This document shows positions 287 to 20,377 of a stretch of 21,852 bases of DNA, in pieces. The notes beneath the pieces were generated by a model. The model was not told the DNA's origin and searched no databases. It was given only the letters and a program-made list of their open reading frames with translations. The translations under genes and the position numbers were made by a program. The stretch is from an uncultured archaeon (lineage in GTDB: Archaea > Iainarchaeota > Iainarchaeia > Iainarchaeales > CSSED10-239), in assembly GCA_964463155.1 (NCBI GenBank), contig CAYXAY010000011.1, positions 1 to 21,852 on the forward strand. Reading direction: 5' to 3'. Position 1 is the first letter of the stretch. Each line of letters begins with the position of its first letter.

Positions 287-1552
287 ATGGAATTAAAAAA
301 AACATTATTTGCTCAAAATTATTGGTGGAAAGAAAAAATCGCTTTTGATTTTAAAGATAGAGACATAGATATAGAAATATCTAAATTTATTACAGAACCG
401 CAAATACTAGCAATTACTGGAATAAGAAGAGTTGGAAAAACCACTTATCTATTAAGTCTTATTAATAAATTAATTAAAAATGGCACAAATCCAGAAGCAA
501 TACTTTTTGTTTCCTTTGACGAACTTAAAACTCAAAAAATTAGAGACATCTTAGAAACCTATGAATCAATTATTGAAAACAAAAAATTTCAAAAAACATA
601 TTTGTTTTTAGACGAAATACAAAAACTTAAAGATTGGGAGAATCAAATAAAATCAATATATGATGAACATAAATTGAAAAACGATTTAAAAATATTTATT
701 TCTGGTTCTGAATCTTTATTTATTAGAAAAAAATCAAAAGAAACTTTAGCTGGAAGAATATTTGAATTTAAAATGAATCAATTGTCTTTTAAAGAATATT
801 TAAATTTTAAAGATTTAAATTATAAAAATATACAACTTTATGAAAAAGAACTATTAATTGACTTTAATAATTTTATTTTAACACAAGGCTTTCCTGAAAT
901 GCTAAATTATACAGACTATTTTAAATTAAAAAAATATACTAATGAAATCACTGAAAAAATCATATTTGGAGATATAGCAAAACAATTTAAAATTACAAAT
1001 TTACAAGCACTAGAATCAATTGTTAAAATAATATCTAATAATCCAGGGCAATTACTTGATCAAACCGATTTAGGCTCAGAAATAAATGTAGTTAGGCAAG
1101 TTGTTTCTAATTATCTTAAGTATCTAGAAGAATCATACTTAATAAAAAAACAATATAATTATTCAAATAATTTTAGAAAAACAGAAAGAAAACTTAAAAA
1201 ATATTATCCTACAATCTTGTCTCCTGAGATTATATTAGATGAAGATTATTTATCTAAGTCTAAGGTTTTTGAAACATTTATAATTAATCAATTAAATTCT
1301 AATTTCTTTTGGAGAGATGCTTATAAAAATGAAGTAGATATGATTTTTGAAAAGAATAAAACAATTGTCCCAATAGAAATAAAATACGGAAAAGTAGAAA
1401 CAGAAGGATTAGATAAATTTATGTCAAATAATAATGTTTCTGTTGGTTATATAATTAGTTTAAATATAGAAAAAAAAATACAGAAAGGAGACAAAACGAT
1501 TTATGTAATCCCCGCATATAAATTTTTACTAAACAAAGACAAATATTTATGA
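287..1552 (+). CDS. AAA+ ATPase of the archaeal COG1373 type (AAA domain plus DUF4143-like C-terminal PD-(D/E)xK-like module)
   Basis: Complete 421-aa ORF with an ATG preceded by GGTG. Walker A is GIRRVGKTT and Walker B is TYLFLDEIQ. The C-terminus (WRDAYKNEVDMIFEKNKTIVPIEIKYGK) has a D...E-x-K arrangement like the nuclease-fold module of this family. Confidence 0.75.
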   Translation: MELKKTLFAQNYWWKEKIAFDFKDRDIDIEISKFITEPQILAITGIRRVGKTTYLLSLINKLIKNGTNPEAILFVSFDELKTQKIRDILETYESIIENKKFQKTYLFLDEIQKLKDWENQIKSIYDEHKLKNDLKIFISGSESLFIRKKSKETLAGRIFEFKMNQLSFKEYLNFKDLNYKNIQLYEKELLIDFNNFILTQGFPEMLNYTDYFKLKKYTNEITEKIIFGDIAKQFKITNLQALESIVKIISNNPGQLLDQTDLGSEINVVRQVVSNYLKYLEESYLIKKQYNYSNNFRKTERKLKKYYPTILSPEIILDEDYLSKSKVFETFIINQLNSNFFWRDAYKNEVDMIFEKNKTIVPIEIKYGKVETEGLDKFMSNNNVSVGYIISLNIEKKIQKGDKTIYVIPAYKFLLNKDKYL

Positions 1553-5065: not shown

Positions 5066-5515
5066 CTATTTTACTACAAAATAAACCTTTCTTCCAGAGT
5101 TGACTTTCTGTAAGTGATTTGCTTTGACTAGGTTATTTAATCTTTGACTTGCTGCGTTTGCTCCTTTGTAGCCGAATGCTTCTTTTATTTCTTCAGCGTC
5201 TGCTTTTCCGTGTTCCTTTATGTAATGTATTATTTTGTCATCGGTTTCTGGCAAAAGAACAATCTCAGGAAGATTTCTGTCTTTTTGTGATATTGAAAGC
5301 TCTAGCTTGTCGTATTTGTCTTGAATGTCTTTTAGGATTTTGTTTGTTTCCTTTCTTTCTTCAAATAACTTAAAGACTAAGATTGAAAGAACCAATGGGT
5401 CCTTTGTTTTTTCCTGAATAGCTATCAAATCAGATAACCCTAACTCCTTGAATTGACTTCCAAGCAATTGCTCAAGGAACATTCTTTTAGTTTCGTCTGT
5501 GTCATTATTAGTCAT
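5066..5515 (-). CDS. Putative winged-helix DNA-binding protein (transcription regulator)
   Basis: 149 aa. The C-terminal 60 residues (IIHYIKEHGKADAEEIKEAFGYKGANAASQRLNNLVKANHLQKVNSGRKVYFVVK) have a helix-turn-helix-wing pattern. Palindromic operator-like sites lie directly upstream. Confidence 0.5.
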   Translation of the reverse strand: MTNNDTDETKRMFLEQLLGSQFKELGLSDLIAIQEKTKDPLVLSILVFKLFEERKETNKILKDIQDKYDKLELSISQKDRNLPEIVLLPETDDKIIHYIKEHGKADAEEIKEAFGYKGANAASQRLNNLVKANHLQKVNSGRKVYFVVK

Positions 5516-5879: not shown

Positions 5880-6965
5880 CTAAAAGACCCTTGACTCTCT
5901 TCTTGGAAGCCTAAAGCCATAACTTTTGGTTTTTTCTAGAATCTTGTTTGTAATTAGGTTAATCTCTTGAAGAGTAAGGCGACTTCTGATGTCTGCCTCT
6001 ATTAAAACTGAAGGATAGGTGTATTTTTGGTTAAAGGAAGAAATTTCTGAAACCATTCTAATAAGCTTATCTGTGTATTCCTTTAAGGAAAGATTGAAAT
6101 CTTTATAGTAAACAAACTCCAGCCTTAGAGGGTAATCATTATCAGAAAGCTTTAAGTAGCAACAATAGAGATTATCTCTTATCTCTTCTGGGAAATCAGA
6201 AAGGATTGGATGGTTTTTTGGGTCCTTTGAATATTTGAAGATTCCTGTTCTTTGGTTCTTTTCTAAAAGAGAAAAAACAACAAAAGCATCAAAGAGTTCA
6301 AAGTCAAGGTTTTGGTCATTGAATATTTCATCTTTTAGAATTGAAAAGAGACGATTTGCTCTACAATCTTCTATTGTTCCAGCTAAGAAAATCTTTTTTT
6401 CTCTTGCCTCTTTGTAAACAGAAAGAAACTTTGAGATTAAATGTTCGTATTTTTTCTTTTGAGGACAATCCGTTGTTGGCTTGTTGATGTATTGAGGAAT
6501 GATTGAACCGTCAAATAGAAATAGTTCAAGGTTGCTTTCTTGTTGTCCAAGAATTAGTGAGGAAATTTCTAGTTCTTTTTCCAAACGAGAAATGGAAGTG
6601 TTCCACATTATCTCCTCAAGCTCTAGAGAAGAACTAGAAAGATATGGTTTTGGGAGATTGTACATGTTTGGAAAATATTTGTAGTTTTTTAATTGCCCTT
6701 CTTGATAATCAAAAAATACTCCTGCTTCCTTGATGATTGTGATATTAGCAAAATTAAGTTGCTTTGAGACAAACCCAGAATCAACGCCAGCTGCCTTTAA
6801 AGAAAAGTTTCTGTCAAATGAAATGTTTTCAATAAGTTTTTCCTCTGAGTTGTAAGGATTATTAATTTCAGAAATATTAATAGTGCGAAGACGAGAAATA
6901 AACACTTGGTTCTTGTTATAGGTATTTACCATCTGTTCAACAACGTTGTTAATGTCTTGTTCCAT
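5880..6965 (-). CDS. nurA: NurA-family 5'-3' nuclease
   Basis: 361 aa. AAGVDSGF (first catalytic Asp), the acidic RLEKELE block and LFLFDGSIIP (second Asp motif) occur with NurA-like spacing. The later GTIEDCRANR and YPSVLIEADIRSR blocks also fit. The ATG is 2 nt after the stop of the upstream toxin gene. Confidence 0.65.
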   Translation of the reverse strand: MEQDINNVVEQMVNTYNKNQVFISRLRTINISEINNPYNSEEKLIENISFDRNFSLKAAGVDSGFVSKQLNFANITIIKEAGVFFDYQEGQLKNYKYFPNMYNLPKPYLSSSSLELEEIMWNTSISRLEKELEISSLILGQQESNLELFLFDGSIIPQYINKPTTDCPQKKKYEHLISKFLSVYKEAREKKIFLAGTIEDCRANRLFSILKDEIFNDQNLDFELFDAFVVFSLLEKNQRTGIFKYSKDPKNHPILSDFPEEIRDNLYCCYLKLSDNDYPLRLEFVYYKDFNLSLKEYTDKLIRMVSEISSFNQKYTYPSVLIEADIRSRLTLQEINLITNKILEKTKSYGFRLPRRESRVF

Positions 6966-6967
6966 AT

Positions 6968-7411
6968 TTATTTCTGCTTTTTCCGGATATTATATTTCCT
7001 ATTAGATTTCCAGATAATTTCTGATTCTTGTTTTTTAAGTTTCTTCAAAATCAATTCTTTTTGTTTCTCTGTTAAGTTTTTATAATAAATCTTTTTCTTA
7101 CTTGCTTTTAATAGATTACTAAAATTGTTATCTTTTTCTATATCAAAATATCCAAATAAAGAATATACATTTCTTCTATACCCTACTTTTATTGTGATTA
7201 TTTTTTTATATTCTTCTTTAATATAGTATATTATTCTATAATCTCCAACATGTAAACTTCTAGTGTTTTTTAAAAAATTAGACATTAGTTTACCAAATTC
7301 TGGATTATCATTTAGTTCTCTTATTTTTTTTATAACCTGAATTTTAATAGATTTGTCTAGCTTTTCAAGTTCTTTTTTTGCTTGAGGAAAAAACAACCTT
7401 TCATAAATCAT
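6968..7411 (-). CDS. RelE/ParE-family type II toxin with a 60-residue Lys-rich C-terminal extension
   Basis: The core is ...AKKELEKLDKSIKIQVIKKIRELNDNPEFGK...LHVGDYRIIYYIKEEYKKIITIKVGYRRNVY, which is the RelE/ParE pattern GDYRIIY...V..R..VY. The track ORF starts at a TTG (7420), and I prefer the ATG at 7411. That start overlaps the antitoxin stop by 11 nt. Confidence 0.7.
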   Translation of the reverse strand: MIYERLFFPQAKKELEKLDKSIKIQVIKKIRELNDNPEFGKLMSNFLKNTRSLHVGDYRIIYYIKEEYKKIITIKVGYRRNVYSLFGYFDIEKDNNFSNLLKASKKKIYYKNLTEKQKELILKKLKKQESEIIWKSNRKYNIRKKQK

Positions 7412-7634
7412 TTTCGTCAATTCCTAATTCTTTTAATAATTCTGATTCAGAAATACATTCTCCATTTTTGTAAGCAATTTCTGCTTCTTCTGTAAGTCTT
7501 AATATGTCTAATAATTCTAAATCTGCTAATTTCTTTGCAATAGATCTTCTTGCAACTTCGCTCCATCTTATTTCTGAATACTTTTTCATTCCAGTATACA
7601 TATAATCAGGTATTGTTAAAGTTATATTTGCCAT
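7401..7634 (-). CDS. Ribbon-helix-helix antitoxin paired with the RelE/ParE toxin
   Basis: 77 aa. The N-terminus ITLTIPDYMYTGMKKYSEIRWSEVARRSIAKKL fits a beta-strand plus two helices (RHH), and the tail is acidic. It sits immediately upstream of, and overlaps, the toxin gene. Confidence 0.6.
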   Translation of the reverse strand: MANITLTIPDYMYTGMKKYSEIRWSEVARRSIAKKLADLELLDILRLTEEAEIAYKNGECISESELLKELGIDENDL

Positions 7635-8761: not shown

Positions 8762-10147
8762 ATGCCAAAAAACAAATATGAGTACAACAATCCTGATTTT
8801 AATAAGATTATTGAAAATATACAAAAAGAAACTTTAGAGTTAAAAGATGTTTCAGAATTTATTCTAAAAACAACCACTGTTGACAAAACACAAATACTTA
8901 AAGAACTATTAAAGCTTGGCAAACAAAAACAAATATTTTCTTCAGAAATTATTTCTCAAGAAAAGAAAAAGATAGCAACTTATCTTGACAAAAAACTGGG
9001 AGACTATCTTATTGATTATTCCTTTGGATATAGGCAACTTACAAGACTTTTTGATTCAAAGGATATTGAAGAGATAATAATCAACGGTTTAAATAAGATT
9101 TTTATTATTGACAGATATCAGAACAAGGTAATTACAGGAATTGAGTTTACAGAAAAAGAATATGATTGGTTCATTAATATCCTAAAGAACACTGTAAAGA
9201 AAGACTTTGATAAAAGAAAGTTTATTGATGGAACATTGCCTGACAGGTCAAGGCTAAACATTGTTTCTAAAAATGTGTGCGGGTTTAATGCAATCACAAT
9301 TAGGAAGTTTACACAAAAGCCACTAACAATAATTGATCTTATAAATTCCGAGACAATTGATTCTTACACAGCAGCATATCTTTGGACAATTGTTGATGGG
9401 TTTAAAATTAAACCCGCAAATATCTTTGTTTGCGGCGGTACTGGTTGTGGAAAAACAACATTTCTAAATATACTTCTTGACTTTATTAACAATAACGAAA
9501 GAATTGTGTTGATTGAAGACACAACAGAGATTGATATTACTAATTTTAATGATTACGTCTCCTTGATTTCAGACATCTCAGACGAAGAAAGCCTATATGC
9601 TATAACACTAAACACAATGAGGATGAGACCAGATAGAATCATTATAGGAGAAGTTAGAGGCAGAGAAGTTCAGGGACTGTTTGTTGCAATGGACACAGGG
9701 CACAATGGCTGTATGGCCACAATTCACGCCAACAACAGCGAAGATACAATTATCAAATTAATAAACAAACCAATGGAGATTTCAGAAATGAATCTTACTC
9801 TTTTGGATTTAATTATTATACTAAAGAAAGGAATGGTTTCTGGAAAAATTATAAGAAAGCTATCTCAGATTACTGAGATATCAAGAGTTGGAAACATCAA
9901 TCTTAATAACATCTATAAAGATGATGACTGTGTGAATTGTACAACAAATATAATGACTTCTCATGTTGCTGAAAAGCTTTGCGATATGGCCGGCATTTCA
10001 AAAGTGGATTTAAAAAAGATTGTAACTTACAGGGCAAGACTGCTTGATGAAATCTGTAGTGGTAGACCAAACATAACAAGAGAGGACTTTAAAAATATAA
10101 TTCATGCTTCCGATATGGAATATGATGTAATTTTAAAAAACAAATAG
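8762..10147 (+). CDS. Type II/IV secretion-system family ATPase (archaeal PilB/FlaI/VirB11-like hexameric ATPase)
   Basis: 461 aa. Walker A is GGTGCGKTTFLN, the Asp box is RIVLIEDTTEI, Walker B is RPDRIIIGEVRGRE, and the His box is GHNGCMATIHAN. Confidence 0.85.
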   Translation: MPKNKYEYNNPDFNKIIENIQKETLELKDVSEFILKTTTVDKTQILKELLKLGKQKQIFSSEIISQEKKKIATYLDKKLGDYLIDYSFGYRQLTRLFDSKDIEEIIINGLNKIFIIDRYQNKVITGIEFTEKEYDWFINILKNTVKKDFDKRKFIDGTLPDRSRLNIVSKNVCGFNAITIRKFTQKPLTIIDLINSETIDSYTAAYLWTIVDGFKIKPANIFVCGGTGCGKTTFLNILLDFINNNERIVLIEDTTEIDITNFNDYVSLISDISDEESLYAITLNTMRMRPDRIIIGEVRGREVQGLFVAMDTGHNGCMATIHANNSEDTIIKLINKPMEISEMNLTLLDLIIILKKGMVSGKIIRKLSQITEISRVGNINLNNIYKDDDCVNCTTNIMTSHVAEKLCDMAGISKVDLKKIVTYRARLLDEICSGRPNITREDFKNIIHASDMEYDVILKNK

Positions 10148-10196: not shown

Positions 10197-10724
10197 ATGG
10201 CATTTAATTTAAAAGAAATATTTAGTAGTAAAAGAACAACAACAAAGGAAGAGGAAAATAGAAGTTTTAATGCTATTCCGGTTCTTGAAAAAACACAAAA
10301 GATAGATCTTGTAGCAGTTATAGCTAGAAGAGCAAGTATGAATGTTGATAAATTGATTGATGTTAACAAAACAACCGAAGATATTGAAAAATATAAACAA
10401 ATGGTTCTGGACTACAAAAAAAGAGGAGCAACAGAAAGACAATTAATGAATCTTAAAGATAAGATTGAAGAACTAGTTGTTGAAAGACAAAAGATGGAAG
10501 TCTTAATGGAATTACTTAATCAGGACAACCTTGTTAAAACCGCTTTTGGAAAAAAAAGGCAAGCAGAGATACATAATACTCTTTTAAACAGATACAAAAA
10601 TGGACAATTGACTCTTGTAGACTTAAAAGATAACCTCTCTGAGCTTTCATTAATCTTAAAGTCAAAGACAGACGAAAGGAACGAAACTCAAAAGTTAGAA
10701 GACTTTAATGCTAGGTTGTTTTAA
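10197..10724 (+). CDS. Charged coiled-coil protein, function unknown
   Basis: 175 aa that is Lys/Glu-rich and heptad-like. A near-perfect Shine-Dalgarno AGGTGATC lies 5 nt upstream of the ATG. I recognise no family. Confidence 0.5.
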   Translation: MAFNLKEIFSSKRTTTKEEENRSFNAIPVLEKTQKIDLVAVIARRASMNVDKLIDVNKTTEDIEKYKQMVLDYKKRGATERQLMNLKDKIEELVVERQKMEVLMELLNQDNLVKTAFGKKRQAEIHNTLLNRYKNGQLTLVDLKDNLSELSLILKSKTDERNETQKLEDFNARLF

Positions 10725-14440: not shown

Positions 14441-15646
14441 CTAAATAAGTTTCTTTATCTTTTTTAGGGTTTCAGCAAGCTCGTCTATTTCTGATTTTGT
14501 GTTATAGAAATAAAAGGAGACCCTCACTAATCCGTCTTTATTAAAACTAGACACTAATGGTTCAGCACAATGCATTCCTGCACGTGTTGCAATATTACTA
14601 TACTCGTCTAAGAAAGAAGAAAGCTCTCTTGATTTTATTCCTTTAAGGTCAAACAAGACAATTGAACCTTGCTTTTTAGAATCACAAGGATTGTAAAGTT
14701 TTAAATCAGAAATATTATTTAGTTTGTTGATTGCATAATCCGTTAATATCTTGTCCTGTCTTTCAATATTATCAATGCCAACTTTCTTTATATAATCAAT
14801 TGCTGCCAGTGTTCCAAAGGCACCAGCAATGTTAGGAGTTCCTGCTTCAAACTTGTTTGGTAAACTATTCCATGTGGATTTCTTAAAAGTAACCTGTCCA
14901 ATCATGTCTCCTCCGAATCTTACTGGAGAAAACTTATCAAGAAGTTTTTCTTTACCAATCAATATTCCAACGCCTGTTGGTCCAAGCATCTTGTGCATTG
15001 TGCAAGCAAAGAAATCAATGTTTAGTTTTCTAAAATCAACTTTTCTATGAGGCGCCGACTGTGCACCATCAACACAAACAAGACAATTGTATTTTCTTGC
15101 AATCCTTACTATCTCTGAAATAGGAGCAACAGTTCCTGTTGTGTTTGAGATGTGAGCGATTGTTACTAATTTTGTTTTGTTTGTAATCTTTTTTTCAAAA
15201 TCATCAAGATCAAAAGTAAAGTCTTTTTTTATTTGTACAAACTTTAGCTTTAATCCAAGTTTTTGAGAAATAAACTGCCAAGGCACAAGGTTTGCATGAT
15301 GTTCATAGACTGTTGTTAATATCTCGTCTCCTTTCTTGAAATAATTAGAATTGTATAACATATACATTATCATGTTTAGAGAATCCGTGCTGTTATGTGT
15401 TAGGATTACTTCTGTTGGTTTGCAGTTAAAAAACTTTGCAAGCTCTGTGTGGCAAGCCTCATAAATAATGCTTGCTTCTTGAGATAGTTTATAGACCCCC
15501 CTATAAATATTTGCTTGGCAGTATATATAATAATGATTCACTGCATCAACCATTTGTTTTGGTTTAAGGCTAGTTGCTGCGCTATCGAGATAAACAATGT
15601 CTTTTTTTAACAAAGGGAAATCCTTTCTGTATTTTTCTAGAGTCAT
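14441..15646 (-). CDS. sufS: Cysteine desulfurase, SufS/CsdA-type class V aminotransferase
   Basis: Motifs are FPLLKKDIVYLDSAATSLKP, the PLP-lysine block CTMHKMLGPTGVGIL and the catalytic Cys block TRAGMHCAEP. The track ORF starts at a TTG (15793) and overlaps rpl44e. The ATG at 15646 (MTLEKYRKDFPLL) matches the family N-terminus. Confidence 0.85.
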   Translation of the reverse strand: MTLEKYRKDFPLLKKDIVYLDSAATSLKPKQMVDAVNHYYIYCQANIYRGVYKLSQEASIIYEACHTELAKFFNCKPTEVILTHNSTDSLNMIMYMLYNSNYFKKGDEILTTVYEHHANLVPWQFISQKLGLKLKFVQIKKDFTFDLDDFEKKITNKTKLVTIAHISNTTGTVAPISEIVRIARKYNCLVCVDGAQSAPHRKVDFRKLNIDFFACTMHKMLGPTGVGILIGKEKLLDKFSPVRFGGDMIGQVTFKKSTWNSLPNKFEAGTPNIAGAFGTLAAIDYIKKVGIDNIERQDKILTDYAINKLNNISDLKLYNPCDSKKQGSIVLFDLKGIKSRELSSFLDEYSNIATRAGMHCAEPLVSSFNKDGLVRVSFYFYNTKSEIDELAETLKKIKKLI

Positions 15647-15780
15647 TGGTTTTTCACATCTTTCTTCTGAAATTAATATATAAGCAATCTTTTTAAATAA
15701 ATATGGGGCATTATATATTATATAGAGTGATCTAAAATTCTGCTCTTTTTTTATAATATTTAACAAAAGAACGATTATAT

Positions 15781-16065
15781 ATGAAGATACCAAAGCAAAT
15801 CAAAACATACTGTAAGAAATGTAAAAAACACGAGGCGCACAAGCTTTCTCAATATAAAGGGAGAGGAGCTAGACCTATGTCAGTAGGCACCCGAAAATTC
15901 CAAAGAAAGCATAAAAGTGGATATGGGGGTAAAGCAAAAATCATAGGTACGGTCAAAAAACAAAATAAGAAACCAACATTTATCGCGGAATGTATGGTTT
16001 GTAAATCCAAAAGATATTTTGTCATACCAAAGAAAATGAAAAAAACAGAATTAAAGACTGACTAA
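15781..16065 (+). CDS. rpl44e: 50S ribosomal protein L44e (eL42), zinc-ribbon type
   Basis: 94 aa. MKIPKQIKTYCKKCKKHEAHKLSQYKGRG...GYGGKAK...ECMVCKSK carries the two CxxC pairs and the GYGG block of L44e. Confidence 0.9.
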   Translation: MKIPKQIKTYCKKCKKHEAHKLSQYKGRGARPMSVGTRKFQRKHKSGYGGKAKIIGTVKKQNKKPTFIAECMVCKSKRYFVIPKKMKKTELKTD

Positions 16066-16121
16066 AGTCTTTTCTTCTTTTTCTTTAATATTTTTAAATT
16101 CATCTATAATCTATTTATAGT

Positions 16122-16793
16122 ATGAAATTTGACACAATCTATAAGTTTATTGCAGCTAGCTTTGCCATAGCTTATTTTGGTGGTTTGATTGTTGGAATGA
16201 TGGTTGTTAGTTTTGATATTGGAAACTATCAAGAGACAGATATTACTAAGTCTTTTTATCTTACTGGTCAAGTAAGCTTTAGAGATGTTTTTACTGAAAA
16301 CTTAAACCGCGCATTAAAGATGGCAATATTGCCATTCACTTTTCTTATAATAGCAATAAAGTTTGGCTTTAATCATGCAACATATATCTTGTCCCCATTT
16401 TTGGGACAGATTAAGCTTGCTGTTCTTTTTATACCGCAGATATTTTATTTTATTACCTATGTTTTGTTTTCCGTAATTGGGTTAAAGATAATTGCAACCA
16501 CTGTTTTGTTTATTGCCAATAGATATTTGATTAAAGGAAATAAGCAATTTGTCAATATAAAAATATTTGGAACTCATGATGTGCTGTTATTGTATCTTGC
16601 ATTATTGTCTCTAACAATCGGCACATTCACACAGATATATCTTTCAAGGGTGTTTTTCATATTCTTGATTAATTATCAACTAATCACCTATGTATTGATT
16701 CTGTTGATATATGTTGCAATCATTGCATTTTCATTATATATAATTTATCAGACAATAAAGTCTATTTTAAAAGAGAATAAACATGGGTATTGA
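16122..16793 (+). CDS. Polytopic membrane protein (about 6 TM), weakly SpoIIM/DUF95-like
   Basis: 223 aa that is almost entirely hydrophobic helices. FRDVFTENLNRALKMAILPFTFLIIAIKFGFNHATY loosely resembles the F..NL..........G.NG block of the DUF95/SpoIIM family (low certainty). Its stop overlaps the downstream ATPase start by 11 nt. Confidence 0.6.
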   Translation: MKFDTIYKFIAASFAIAYFGGLIVGMMVVSFDIGNYQETDITKSFYLTGQVSFRDVFTENLNRALKMAILPFTFLIIAIKFGFNHATYILSPFLGQIKLAVLFIPQIFYFITYVLFSVIGLKIIATTVLFIANRYLIKGNKQFVNIKIFGTHDVLLLYLALLSLTIGTFTQIYLSRVFFIFLINYQLITYVLILLIYVAIIAFSLYIIYQTIKSILKENKHGY

Positions 16794-18078
16794 TTTTCAA
16801 TCTGAAGAGATTGTTGTTGGAAGAATACAAAGTCAGATAGCTAAGTATGGAAACAAGGGGACCGGCTATATTGGAAAGGTGGTTGTTTCAAGCGGAGAAG
16901 AGCCAGTTCTTGGAAAAAGAGTACTAATGGATGTGTCAAGATCACATGTAGCTATTGTTTGTGGAAAAAGAGGTTCTGGAAAATCTTATGCTATGTCTGT
17001 CTTGATTGAAGAATTTGCAAGACAGCCTTTTGAGATTAAGGAAAGACTTTCAGTTATTGTTATTGACACTGTCGGAATCTTTTGGACAATGAAATATCCT
17101 AACAAGGAAGAAGTAGGGCTTTTAGAGAAATGGAATCTTAAGCCTGAAGGAATAGACATTAGAAATCTTGTTCCTGTTGGTAAGAAAGACTTTTATGAAC
17201 AAAAAAACCTTCAACATGACGGCTTATTCTCAATTAGAACTTCACAAATGGATGTTGAAGACTGGCTTGCTGTTTTTAGACTTAATTGGAGAGACGCAGA
17301 GGCGTCTTTGCTTTCAAGAACCATTGACAAAATAAAGTCAAAGGTTGGAACTCTTTACGATATTGACGATATTATTACTGAAACAAAAAAAGACGAAGAA
17401 ACAACTAAAGAAATTATTAATTCTTTAAACAATCGTTTCTTGGTAGCAAAATCCTGGGGGCTTTTTTCAAGAGCAGGAACAACAATGAAGGAGTTTGCTA
17501 AACCTGGCACAATAACAATTGTTGACACCAGCACCTACAAAGAATCAATTGGTATGGAATCAATTAAAGAATTGATTGTTGGAATCTTAGGCAAAAGACT
17601 TTACGAAGAAAGAATGCTTTACAGAAAAGAAGAAGAAATGTCTCTTTTGTCTAGAGGAAGAAAAGAAAGTGAGATGCCAATCATATGGATGATGATTGAT
17701 GAAGCGCATATGTTTATGCCATCAGACAGACAATCAATGGCACTTGATGTTCTTTTACAATGGGTAAGGGTTGGAAGGCAACCTGGTCTTTCTCTACTTC
17801 TTGCAACACAAAGACCAAACAAACTTCACTCTGAAGCAATATCGCAATGTGATTTTTTCCTAAGCATGAGAATGACTGCTCAAGAAGATATACAAGCAGT
17901 TTCATCAATCAGGCCAAGCTATCTTAATATACCTATGGACAAATACTATGGACAGATGCCAAAAGACCAAGGTTATGCCATCTTGCTTGACGATAACTCA
18001 GAAAAAGTAATGATGATAAAAATGAAGCCAAGAGTAACTTGGGATGGTGGGAAGACAGCTAATGTTTTTATTGATTAA
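16783..18078 (+). CDS. HerA/FtsK-superfamily P-loop ATPase (DUF87-type) with only a vestigial N-terminal HAS-barrel
   Basis: 431 aa. Walker A is HVAIVCGKRGSGKS at residues 55-68, Walker B is IWMMIDEAHMF, and GRQPGLSLLLATQRPNKLHSEAISQCDFFLSMRM matches the conserved HerA/DUF87 C-terminal block. Confidence 0.8.
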   Translation: MGIDFQSEEIVVGRIQSQIAKYGNKGTGYIGKVVVSSGEEPVLGKRVLMDVSRSHVAIVCGKRGSGKSYAMSVLIEEFARQPFEIKERLSVIVIDTVGIFWTMKYPNKEEVGLLEKWNLKPEGIDIRNLVPVGKKDFYEQKNLQHDGLFSIRTSQMDVEDWLAVFRLNWRDAEASLLSRTIDKIKSKVGTLYDIDDIITETKKDEETTKEIINSLNNRFLVAKSWGLFSRAGTTMKEFAKPGTITIVDTSTYKESIGMESIKELIVGILGKRLYEERMLYRKEEEMSLLSRGRKESEMPIIWMMIDEAHMFMPSDRQSMALDVLLQWVRVGRQPGLSLLLATQRPNKLHSEAISQCDFFLSMRMTAQEDIQAVSSIRPSYLNIPMDKYYGQMPKDQGYAILLDDNSEKVMMIKMKPRVTWDGGKTANVFID

Positions 18079-18089
18079 AATAAAGGAAT

Positions 18090-18770
18090 CTATTCATCCA
18101 AAAGCTTGCCACCAAACTCTTTTGCAACAACATCTGCTATCTTTATCTTCTTGCTTGGGCCTTCTATGTAAAGAATACTGTCTTTTTCAAAGTAGATAAC
18201 TAGGCTTTCAGAAGACAATCTAAACTTTACTGTTTGAGCTTTTAATATCTCATCATAGATTAGGTCTATGCTTGAAGCTGGAACAATAATGTCTATTCCA
18301 ACCTTTCTTCCATTTACATGTTCAGCAATGTTATTTAAATCAATTGTTCCAACAACATTAAACTTTAGTATAAACTCCCCAATATTGAATGACTCAATCA
18401 TCTTTTTTAAGAACTCCTTTGATTTCTTAGCTCCATCAAAGCTCATTGTCCTGTAACATCTAAAGTTTTCAAGGAATATGTCGCCAGTAGCAATGCTTTT
18501 TTCAAAACCATTTATTTCTTCTCTTAGGTTTTTGCTTAATGTTACCATTTTCTTATATAGGGAAATTAGCTCTCTTTTCTTTATTTCTTCTTCAATTGTT
18601 GCATTAAGTAATGGCTCTTTTTCGCTTATATCTTGTAAATCCTTTATGTCTTGGGTTAAACTAAGCATAATCTCCTGCATAGGTTTGTAAAGCTCAACAA
18701 GCTTATTTATCTTATACAGGCTCTTGTTTAAAGAATCAAACAATTTAGTTAATTTTATGTCTTCTGGCAT
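18090..18770 (-). CDS. Hypothetical coiled-coil protein with a C-terminal alpha/beta domain
   Basis: I prefer the ATG at 18770 (MPEDIKLTKLF...). The track ORF begins at a TTG (18854) inside an AT-rich promoter-like stretch. It is convergent with the HerA-like gene, with 11 nt between the stops. I recognise no family. Confidence 0.45.
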   Translation of the reverse strand: MPEDIKLTKLFDSLNKSLYKINKLVELYKPMQEIMLSLTQDIKDLQDISEKEPLLNATIEEEIKKRELISLYKKMVTLSKNLREEINGFEKSIATGDIFLENFRCYRTMSFDGAKKSKEFLKKMIESFNIGEFILKFNVVGTIDLNNIAEHVNGRKVGIDIIVPASSIDLIYDEILKAQTVKFRLSSESLVIYFEKDSILYIEGPSKKIKIADVVAKEFGGKLLDE

Positions 18771-19046
18771 AAATTTTCCCCATTTTAGAAATATATATAG
18801 ATTAGAAAAGGAACTATATTTAAAGCTTATCTCTTGAGATAGGTTTAAAAACAAAATTATATAGTTCTTATTGCGGTTTTTTTCTTTATTTTTGGCTTGT
18901 CTTCAATAAGTCTTCTTAATGGCATCTAATTCTCTTTGTGTTGGTTTTCTATCATTAGATTTTGTTACAGAGATTTGACCTTGTCTTTATTGGGTTAGTT
19001 ATTGGTTTTTTGGGATTATATGGTTGGGGGGCGTATTTTATTTCTC

Positions 19047-19958
19047 CTAATGGTTTTCTTTAATCTCAATAAAGGCGTGATATGCTGCAATAGCTCCTTG
19101 GCTTGCAGAAGTCACCACTTGTTTTAAATCTGTGGAATTTGTGGCATCACCTGCTGCAAATATACCTTCTTTGTTTGTTTTTTGGTTTTTATCAACAACT
19201 ATATAGTCTTTTTCATCTAAGGAAATTTCGGTGTTTTTCAAAAGCTCAGTGTTAGGAACAGAACCAATCTCTATAAACAGACCATCAACTATTAGTTCTT
19301 TATTTGTGTTTGTTTTTATTCCCGTTAGTTTTTCTTTACCAAGAAGCTCTGTTATCTCTGTATTGTAAAGTATTTCTATTTTTGGATTATTAATTACTAA
19401 GTCTGTCCAGATCTTTTCTGCTCGCAATTGTTCTTTTCTATAAATCAAATAAACTTTGCTAGCGAGGTCTGCTAAAAGAAGAGCAGAAGTAACTGCAGCG
19501 TCACTTCCTCCAACAACCCCAACAACTTTATTTTTGTAAAAACCACCATCACATGTTGCACAATAGCTTATTCCTTTGCCTATTAATTCTTTTTCTTTGT
19601 CAATACCAAGCCTTGCTCTTGTTCTGCCAATAGCTAGAATTATCTTTTTGCTTTTAATTGTTCTTTGATTAGAATTAACAATAAATTCTTCTTTTTCCTT
19701 ATTGATTGTCATAACTTTTTCAAAAAAAACCTCTACTCCAAAAGACTGTGTTTGATCTAAAGTTTTTTCTGCAAATTCCATTCCAGATATTTCCTTTAAT
19801 CCAGGGAAATTACAAACCTTGTGAGCATAGGCGACTGCTCCGCCAAAGGAATCACTAAACACTATTGTCTTTAGGCCATATCTTGAAGAATATATTGCAG
19901 CAGTCAGTCCTGCTGGGCCCCCCCCAACAATCGCAACATCATAAATAGTTTCGCTCAT
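19047..19958 (-). CDS. trxB: Thioredoxin-disulfide reductase (low-molecular-weight TrxR)
   Basis: 303 aa. The FAD motif is VAIVGGGPAGLTAA, the redox-active site is CATCDG, the second dinucleotide motif is VVGGSDAAV, and GIFAAGDA is near the C-terminus. The start overlaps the upstream stop (ATGA). Confidence 0.9.
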   Translation of the reverse strand: MSETIYDVAIVGGGPAGLTAAIYSSRYGLKTIVFSDSFGGAVAYAHKVCNFPGLKEISGMEFAEKTLDQTQSFGVEVFFEKVMTINKEKEEFIVNSNQRTIKSKKIILAIGRTRARLGIDKEKELIGKGISYCATCDGGFYKNKVVGVVGGSDAAVTSALLLADLASKVYLIYRKEQLRAEKIWTDLVINNPKIEILYNTEITELLGKEKLTGIKTNTNKELIVDGLFIEIGSVPNTELLKNTEISLDEKDYIVVDKNQKTNKEGIFAAGDATNSTDLKQVVTSASQGAIAAYHAFIEIKENH

Positions 19959-20365
19959 TTTTTCTTCCTCTTCTTAATAAATATATCTTCATACAACTTA
20001 TTATAATCCCTTTTCTTTGCTTTTAATCCTAGAGATCTATCAATAGATTCCATACCATATCTTATATTTTCGGGACTAACTTCAATTGTTGGAATGCCAC
20101 ACTCCTCTAAAGCAGCAAAAAATTCTCTATAGGTGATACCAGCAAGCTTTGCCCCCCCAGCAATATTAACTTCTTTGTTTTTGTAGGCTTTTAGAGCCAT
20201 GCCAAGCTTATATTCCTTTAACCCTTTTTCAATTAACTTTCTTAAAAATTCAGACTCTGTTAGATTTTCTTCTTTTGCAATATTGTAAGCCATTTCAGAC
20301 ATTGCATCAGTTAATCTTAATGTTTTTACGTTCTTTCTTTCACAAACAGATTTTACTTTTTTCAT
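19955..20365 (-). CDS. Antitoxin-like protein: N-terminal ribbon-helix-helix fused to a UPF0175 (COG2886)-like domain
   Basis: KTLRLTDAMSEMAYNIAKEENLTESEFLRKLIEKGL fits RHH. LGMALKAYKNKEVNIAGGAKLAGITYREFFAALEECGIP fits the UPF0175 pattern. I prefer the ATG at 20365, whereas the track ORF starts at a GTG (20374). Confidence 0.6.
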   Translation of the reverse strand: MKKVKSVCERKNVKTLRLTDAMSEMAYNIAKEENLTESEFLRKLIEKGLKEYKLGMALKAYKNKEVNIAGGAKLAGITYREFFAALEECGIPTIEVSPENIRYGMESIDRSLGLKAKKRDYNKLYEDIFIKKRKKK

Positions 20366-20377
20366 AAATATCACATT

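Follow-up and report, generated by a model that had tools for sequence, protein, structure and literature searches.

Does a membrane protein gene that runs into an ATPase gene mark a dedicated membrane translocase, or has a motor with a wider role acquired a local companion? The question is raised by a gene pair in a 21,852-nucleotide (nt) stretch of DNA from an uncultured archaeon of the Iainarchaeota (GenBank assembly GCA_964463155.1, contig CAYXAY010000011.1, positions 1 to 21,852), called here the window. The initial annotation saw in this pair a candidate membrane-anchored translocase, and its factual statements on the open reading frames (ORFs), the overlap, the motifs and the context were all confirmed when they were rechecked. 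The interpretation developed below, to which we give an even chance, is that the ATPase is a HerA paralogue spread through the DPANN archaea and that the membrane protein is a clade-specific add-on, possibly a tether, dispensable for the core role of the motor. The elements of the pair are the following, with amino acid (aa) positions counted in the ATPase.

16122-16793, plus strand: membrane protein gene, an ORF of 223 aa
16783-18078, plus strand: gene for the HerA-clade P-loop ATPase, an ORF of 431 aa; a member of a DPANN-wide family of ~430-aa proteins
16783-16793, plus strand: 11-nt overlap of the membrane gene stop region with the ATPase gene start, read from the ORFs
16783-16947, plus strand: N-terminal stub, aa 1-55, in which three strands and one short helix replace the ~100-aa HAS-barrel
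16963-16986, plus strand: Walker A, GKRGSGKS, aa 61-68, from the family alignment
17254-17454, plus strand: helical insertion in the RecA-like core, aa ~158-224, with AlphaFold2 helices at 158-164, 172-188, 194-202 and 209-224
17686-17709, plus strand: Walker B, WMMIDEAH, aa 302-309; D306 nearly invariant, E307 and H309 invariant
17794-17817, plus strand: LLLATQRP block, the HerA/FtsK-type sensor region, aa 338-345; T342 and Q343 invariant

The ATPase belongs to the HerA clade, rather than with VirB4, CedB or FtsK, by its sequence profile as well as by its predicted fold. The Pfam model DUF87, the central domain of HerA, matched it at 2e-12 (48 bits, cut-off 23.2), and the match to FtsK_SpoIIIE was marginal (25.7 bits against a cut-off of 24) and covered positions 153-219 of 221, the final third of the model. 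In NCBIfam and PADLOC the best-scoring models were those of HerA, all far under their full-length cut-offs (for NCBIfam, helicase_HerA 49.8 bits against 970 and HerA_Thermprot 33.7 against 800). The NCBIfam models of CedB and CedD gave no match at E<=1; among the VirB4 models, VirB4_CagE gave 0.036 with no passing stretch and VirB4_plasma 33 bits against a cut-off of 590. When the profile of the ATPase family was compared with the sequences in the PDB, HerA proteins were found at 6e-23 to 1e-12 and FtsK at ~1e-3, and no VirB4 was retrieved. The AlphaFold2 model of the ATPase was of high quality (predicted local distance difference test score, pLDDT, 88.5; predicted template modelling score, pTM, 0.89), and in a Foldseek comparison with the PDB all of its top 50 matches were HerA or HerA-like ATPases, led by the Thermococcus HerA-NurA complex (9x1m, 3e-19) and Sulfolobus HerA (4d2i, 8e-17). 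Given this global fold match, the four-helix insertion probably corresponds to the helical bundle of HerA proteins.

Conservation of the motifs was scored in an alignment of 25 sequences of the ATPase family, in which the Walker A, Walker B and LLLATQRP blocks were invariant or nearly so. The last of these aligned with the equivalent block in solved HerA proteins. The HerA/DUF87 assignment of the three blocks made in the initial annotation is thus sound, as they are both present and conserved. Neither the sequence nor the model of the ATPase chain contained a transmembrane segment, an N-terminal membrane domain or a gamma domain.

The ATPase departs from the archaeal HerA proteins at its N-terminus. 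Fifty-five residues precede the first core strand, and in the AlphaFold2 model they form strands at 10-12, 27-36 and 42-50 and a helix at 16-22. Residues G13, R14, D50 and H55 of this stub are invariant across the 25 family sequences, which argues that it is functional and not decaying. An in-frame TAA (16768-16770) lies four codons 5' of the ATPase ATG, and the homologues agree with the window ATPase both in their N-terminus and in their length of 431 aa; therefore, the short N-terminus is real. A longer start restoring the HAS-barrel is excluded by the stop and by the start common to the homologues. The view that the P-loop begins at residue 61 and that the barrel is at most vestigial consequently holds, with Walker A at aa 61-68, a three-strand stub before it and no earlier start. 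The face of the HAS-barrel is the docking surface for NurA in the solved HerA-NurA complexes; the ATPase would have given up this platform, on which NurA or defence effectors dock. Compared with archaeal HerA (Sulfolobus 4D2I, Thermococcus 9X1M), the window ATPase has the same RecA-like core, Walker A and B motifs and ATQRP-type block and a comparable helical insertion, but it lacks the barrel of ~100 aa, is ~70-160 aa shorter and has no nurA, mre11 or rad50 next to it.

A nurA gene is nevertheless present in the window (5880-6965, minus strand; Pfam NurA, 6e-12), ~10 kb from the ATPase gene, and no Mre11 or Rad50 domain was detected in window ORFs of at least 90 aa. Both observations agree with the initial annotation, which had placed nurA 10 kb off on the other strand and had reported no mre11 or rad50. 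For a survey of the gene neighbourhood, ORFs were called in the window and in 84 related loci (85 in all), and all neighbours were clustered. The nurA gene lay within 6 kb of the ATPase gene in none of the 84 other loci. The complete Iainarchaeum genome CP064981 carries the 431-aa ATPase at ~850 kb and also a separate 517-aa DUF87 protein (locus L089, 15955-17508) located 5 kb from nurA. This 517-aa HerA fits positions 8-463 of 487 of the repair-HerA profile, hence including the N-terminal region, matches CedD at 6e-25 and is 24% identical to the window ATPase. With both proteins carried by one complete Iainarchaeum genome, the family of the window ATPase is a paralogue of canonical HerA. The claim that the pair is not the canonical end-resection helicase is therefore upheld, by the missing HAS-barrel, the distance of nurA in 84 loci and the separate 517-aa HerA of CP064981. 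In the 20-kb stretch of CP064981 around the canonical-type HerA and nurA, a Hjc resolvase, a Toprim protein and SMC were also encoded; judged from this stretch, the repair genes in the class of Iainarchaeum are loosely clustered and not operonic.

The ATPase family turned out to be large. A word-indexed search returned 2781 homologues, the top 120 of which were nearly all 429-436 aa long and 55-91% identical, and an exhaustive search of 50%-identity representatives gave 213 clusters below 1e-30. In a species scan covering one genome per GTDB species, the family was found in at least 594 species genomes, and the best 80 of these matches came from Iainarchaeia, Micrarchaeota, Woesearchaeota, Nanoarchaeota, Aenigmatarchaeota and Nanohaloarchaea. 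Across Iainarchaeia the identity was 55-60%, with the length being constant. The breadth, identity and constant length of the family argue that the gene is core and vertically inherited, and it is probably a housekeeping gene.

Two variations on the ATPase were noticed among its relatives. Many orthologues appear to contain a large insertion of ~420-440 aa after K67 of the P-loop (loci L007-L010, L032-L036, L038, L039, L090, L091, L093, L094, L098, L100 and L101), and some are named LAGLIDADG homing endonuclease. The insertion is probably an intein, considering this name, the orthologues that align only from residue 68 and the Pfam intein domains in protein P0096. It is absent from the ATPase of the window and from its closest relative. 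In distant relatives of ~35% identity, the ATPase is joined to DUF835, to proteases of the subtilase or papain type or to winged-helix domains of the TrmB/MarR type (P0198, P0223, P0216, P0229, P0197 and P0210, the last two with Diapherotrites source names). Another long homologue, P0203 from Promethearchaeota, has no added Pfam domain. Among ~90 long homologues (>500 aa) examined, a multi-span membrane domain was found in none.

The second member of the pair, the membrane protein, is polytopic, with 6-7 hydrophobic segments by hydropathy. With 23 homologues as input, AlphaFold2 modelled it as six long helices (mean pLDDT 74); only very short loops are predicted on the cytoplasmic side. The homologues form 23 clusters only, all 45-66% identical. 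Their alignment contains 45 invariant columns, a strict SPFLGQIKL motif, a YLSRxFFIFLINxQLITY motif and conserved polar residues; the strict motif and the polar residues argue that the protein is real and constrained. No Pfam model matched any of the 23 members at E<=1, so the SpoIIM/DUF95 identity that had been put forward as a candidate in the initial annotation is rejected. NCBIfam and PADLOC gave no match to the protein either, and a profile search of the PDB with its family was also empty. The best fold match in the PDB was TolQ (E=0.7, TM-score 0.2), in a comparison that covered no model or structure of CedA. As it matches nothing in Pfam, NCBIfam or the PDB, the membrane protein is classed as an orphan. 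Its gene has a GC fraction of 0.28-0.30 and the ATPase gene one of 0.35-0.38; this was rejected as a sign of foreign origin, since such a base composition is expected for a hydrophobic protein in an AT-rich genome and is uninformative.

In the surveyed neighbourhoods, the membrane gene was found in six loci only, all with an ATPase at least 76% identical to that of the window, and it was always located directly upstream on the same strand. The clade that has the gene is delimited by an ATPase identity of at least 74%. A profile hidden Markov model of the membrane family detected nothing further in the surveyed loci at E<=10. The spacers between the two genes in the six loci were -11, 3, 3, 9, 14 and 15 nt, with the overlap being present in the window only, where the ATPase ATG (16783) lies within ...AAACATGGGTATTGA and the TGA stop of the membrane gene occupies 16791-16793. 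The fixed stoichiometry that had been deduced from this overlap is unwarranted, as the five related genomes have 3-15 nt between both genes. A metagenome scan seeded with the membrane protein yielded 14 more loci. In 10 of 10 with enough downstream sequence, the ATPase gene came right after the membrane gene, at membrane protein identities down to 41%, so that the membrane gene stood directly upstream of the ATPase gene in 16 of 16 loci.

Outside this clade, no membrane partner was found in 78 DPANN loci with ATPases 50-70% identical to that of the window, and these loci span all of the groups named above for the best species matches. In the next relative, L010 (ATPase 70% identical), the L44e gene is followed by a small opposite-strand ORF and the ATPase gene, with no membrane gene. 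None of the eight close same-strand upstream neighbours of the ATPase gene in the 78 outside loci encoded a polytopic protein, against a background of 14%. The single-helix small ORFs just upstream of the ATPase gene in Aenigmatarchaeota were discarded as low-complexity, non-homologous and probably spurious. Conservation of the pair as neighbours, by which the initial annotation proposed to judge it, was thus found in the narrow clade of the window (16/16 loci) and not in the 78 other DPANN loci. The pair is tightly kept where present, but in a very small part of the range of the ATPase family.

The region upstream of the membrane gene contains one further element of the pair.

16091-16099, plus strand: TATA-like box TTTTTAAAT, 23-31 nt 5' of the membrane gene ATG; likely promoter of a leaderless two-gene transcript

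All six clade genomes have an equivalent box, 22-33 nt 5' of the membrane gene, and none of them has one at promoter distance before the ATPase gene. In L002, L003, L005 and L012, where the ATPase gene has its own upstream region, a TTTAAATA box is located 22-36 nt before the ATPase ATG. A spacing of 22-36 nt is typical for archaeal genes with leaderless or short-leader transcripts. Some clade genomes have ribosome-binding-like motifs, GGA or GTGAT, before the ATPase gene. The two genes form an operon in the clade, with spacers of -11 to +15 nt, an order kept in 16/16 loci and a box before the first gene only, and in this AT-rich DNA they are probably read as one two-gene transcript from the promoter of the membrane gene.

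The genes that recur near the ATPase gene across its wider range encode soluble proteins, two of which are represented in the window.

5066-5515, minus strand: coiled-coil and winged-helix protein, 149 aa, relocated beside nurA in the window
18090-18770, minus strand: convergent soluble protein, 226 aa, N-terminus coiled-coil; conserved beside the ATPase over a wider range than the membrane protein is

The commonest neighbour, encoded in 27 loci including the relocated copy of the window, is a protein of ~160 aa whose N-terminus is coiled-coil and whose C-terminus is probably a winged helix. In the 26 other loci, two Micrarchaeota among them, its gene lies 1-8 (mostly 1-5) genes upstream of the ATPase gene on the same strand. 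In most Iainarchaeia and Micrarchaeota the gene is found shortly before the ATPase gene, and in the window, L087 (7131-7589) and L088 (8245-8709) it is located 1-2 kb downstream of nurA instead, so it alternates between the ATPase and nurA neighbourhoods. The winged-helix matches of this protein are weak, and in PDB profile searches with three recurrent neighbour families only such weak matches, at E ~0.03, were obtained. A divergent gene on the opposite strand, coding for a 155-aa coiled-coil protein, is placed immediately upstream of the ATPase gene in 11 loci; a twelfth locus has it two genes away on that side. The convergent gene downstream, of ~224 aa, occurs in 15 loci including the window, at ATPase identities of 50-100%. 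Neither a family nor a PDB entry matched its 226-aa product in the window, and homology with the divergent 155-aa coiled-coil protein was considered and dismissed. The mechanically called ORF for it (18090-18854, minus strand, 254 aa, TTG start) is overlong, as the homologues begin at the ATG of MPEDIKLTKL... (18770), which gives 226 aa. In Woesearchaeota, replication factor C subunits and a methyltransferase are encoded near the ATPase gene. The recurrent neighbours, none of which is a membrane protein, point loosely to nucleic-acid business.

Taken with these neighbours, the preferred interpretation can be spelled out. By analogy with solved HerA, the ATPase would most likely be a ring of six subunits, through whose pore nucleic acid, probably double-stranded DNA, is drawn at the expense of ATP. 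The motor is probably cytoplasmic and would be partnered by small coiled-coil and winged-helix proteins, not by NurA. In a narrow Iainarchaeum-like clade, a gene for a six-helix membrane protein would have been placed between the L44e gene and the ATPase gene, supplying the promoter. As the motor is unchanged elsewhere without it, the membrane protein is best regarded as an add-on that is not required for the core role. It may be an accessory that keeps a fraction of the motors membrane-bound, or be co-expressed and functionally separate, and would not be a channel that defines the motor.

Several observations weigh against this interpretation. The membrane gene was never seen without the ATPase gene, and within the clade the adjacency of the pair outlasts rearrangements on both flanks: an insertion separates L44e from the membrane gene in L007, L44e is found elsewhere in L008, and the downstream genes differ. 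Such persistence, with no membrane gene standing apart from the ATPase gene, favours a real functional tie and not a passenger. The fold class, the distribution of the family, the lack of the barrel, the operon and the restriction to the clade are shown, and the hexamer, the DNA substrate and the roles of the neighbours are inferred. The winged-helix domains carried as fusions by distant homologues of the ATPase are not similar in sequence to the neighbouring winged-helix protein, and the argument from these fusions is therefore one of analogy only. Finally, the gene neighbourhood in related small genomes may mirror inherited gene order and not function.

The main alternative, which we regard as doubtful, is a dedicated membrane-docked translocase, in which the six-helix protein would form a ring or channel and a hexamer of the ATPase, seated on it, would move DNA, nucleotides or protein across the membrane, perhaps for uptake by a host-dependent archaeon. 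It would explain the operon with its one well-placed promoter, the membrane gene kept directly 5' of the ATPase gene in 16/16 loci down to 41% membrane protein identity and despite the flank rearrangements, and the conserved polar residues and strict SPFLGQIKL of the membrane protein. Precedents exist among motors of the HerA/FtsK superfamily. In the Ced importer, the polytopic CedA is served by the ATPases CedB and CedD, and for some CedD orthologues without transmembrane segments binding via other factors has been proposed (PMC11823120). The Thermus protein TdtA of ICEth1 is reported to be a membrane-bound HerA-like hexamer with a role in DNA transfer, pushing DNA out (PMC5365140); it is 568 aa long, was found via its HAS-barrel motif, and is encoded beside a NurA-like nuclease on a mobile element.

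The likeness to these systems is partial. The window pair resembles Ced in joining a six- to seven-helix membrane protein to an ATPase of the HerA/FtsK superfamily, but the ATPase has no CedB or CedD match, no CedA1/A2 pilin-like genes are present and the pair is confined to a narrow DPANN clade. In contrast to TdtA, the ATPase gene is a chromosomal core gene whose product has neither the length nor the HAS-barrel of that protein, and it has no NurA-like neighbour and no mobile element around it. FtsK/SpoIIIE belong to the same superfamily with a marginal profile fit, and the ATPase chain differs from FtsK in lacking the N-terminal membrane domain and the gamma domain; if the tether were real, the logic of FtsK would be matched with anchor, motor and winged-helix DNA-recognition module as separate proteins. 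Against a dedicated translocase stand the 78 other DPANN loci in which an ATPase 50-70% identical does without a membrane partner, the lack of a fused membrane anchor in ~90 long homologues, a membrane protein unlike known channel or transport families and with very short predicted cytoplasmic loops, and an ATPase that leaves the CedB and CedD models unmatched and VirB4 marginal. The gene overlap is not conserved, and no pilin, VirB2-like or other secretion component was found beside the pair among the window ORFs. A membrane translocation module, as initially proposed, accordingly does not stand as the general role of the ATPase, with 78 loci having no partner and no fused transmembrane domain being found; it survives as a possible lineage-specific addition. 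In a more specific form of the proposal, a newly evolved six-helix protein would have brought a DPANN-wide housekeeping HerA paralogue to the membrane in this one lineage, and the two genes would make a minimal nucleic-acid translocase, used for instance to obtain DNA or nucleotides from a host and unrelated to Ced, type IV or FtsK systems; we hold this to be unlikely.

It appears improbable that the ATPase works with the NurA of the window (5880-6965), the two being a minimal HerA-NurA machine for end resection with genes that came to lie apart. The best structural match of the ATPase is to the Thermococcus HerA-NurA complex, nurA has no herA next to it in the window, and the coiled-coil and winged-helix gene, usually 5' of the ATPase gene, adjoins nurA in the window, L087 and L088. 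These points are outweighed by the 0 of 84 other loci with nurA within 6 kb of the ATPase gene, by the separate 517-aa repair-type HerA 5 kb from nurA in the complete Iainarchaeum genome, by the missing HAS-barrel face for NurA docking and by the lack of mre11 and rad50 in the window.

We give almost no credence to the idea that the pair is a HerA-type system of anti-virus defence, in which infected cells would be killed or arrested by the membrane protein acting as effector: HerA-effector pairing is common in defence systems, with PDB entries of this kind among the matches, and the PADLOC HerA models and mad8, which is also short, match the ATPase at 1e-22 to 1e-13, but these good matches are limited to the common ATPase core (aa 240-385), and, in contrast to defence HerA (Sir2-HerA, DUF4297-HerA), the ATPase is near-universal in DPANN rather than patchy in distribution, constant in length and 55-60% identical across the class, lies in a stable housekeeping neighbourhood (L44e, Alba, SufS) unlike that of defence genes, lacks the effector-binding N-terminal platform and has no Sir2, DUF4297 or nuclease effector adjacent, with the membrane protein giving no PADLOC match.

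Other genes of the window deserve a brief description. Directly upstream of nurA on the minus strand, a protein with a ParE-toxin domain is encoded at 6968-7420, 2 nt away, and a 77-aa ribbon-helix-helix (RHH)-like ORF at 7401-7634. The order RHH, ParE, NurA recurs in L087, a distant Iainarchaeum contig with a NurA 48% identical, and from the order shared by the two a toxin-antitoxin pair appears to be stably linked to nurA. An ATPase of the type II/IV secretion family (8762-10147, plus strand; T2SSE, 8e-33) is followed by a 175-aa protein without a family (10197-10724, plus strand), and the two may belong to an assembly system for a pilus or an archaellum-like structure. Of the loci in the window, this one is more likely to encode a surface machine than the membrane gene/ATPase pair. 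The cysteine desulfurase gene (14441-15793, minus strand) was called mechanically from a TTG start as 450 aa, and in the closest relative (L004) it codes for 400 aa. The true start is probably ~50 codons downstream, and the overlap with the start of the L44e gene is then likely an artefact. An AAA_14/DUF4143 ATPase is encoded at 287-1552 (plus strand) and a UPF0175 antitoxin-like protein at 19955-20374 (minus strand); both kinds of protein are common and poorly understood accessories of small genomes.

A literature search found no paper discussing this ATPase family in DPANN, and a HerA-clade motor that is core to DPANN and lacks the barrel is an undescribed variant of HerA. DPANN archaea have tiny genomes with few conserved genes of unknown role. 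The constant length of the ATPase across DPANN, the loss of the barrel and the coexistence with canonical HerA together point to a basic role that has not yet been described. DPANN are also thought to depend on their hosts for nucleotides. The operon of the ATPase and membrane genes suggests a motor working at the membrane in this lineage. If the membrane protein does not act as a tether, it would be an ordinary lineage-specific gene in an operon with a core gene; if it does, the pair would show that a membrane DNA pump can arise independently and by simple means.

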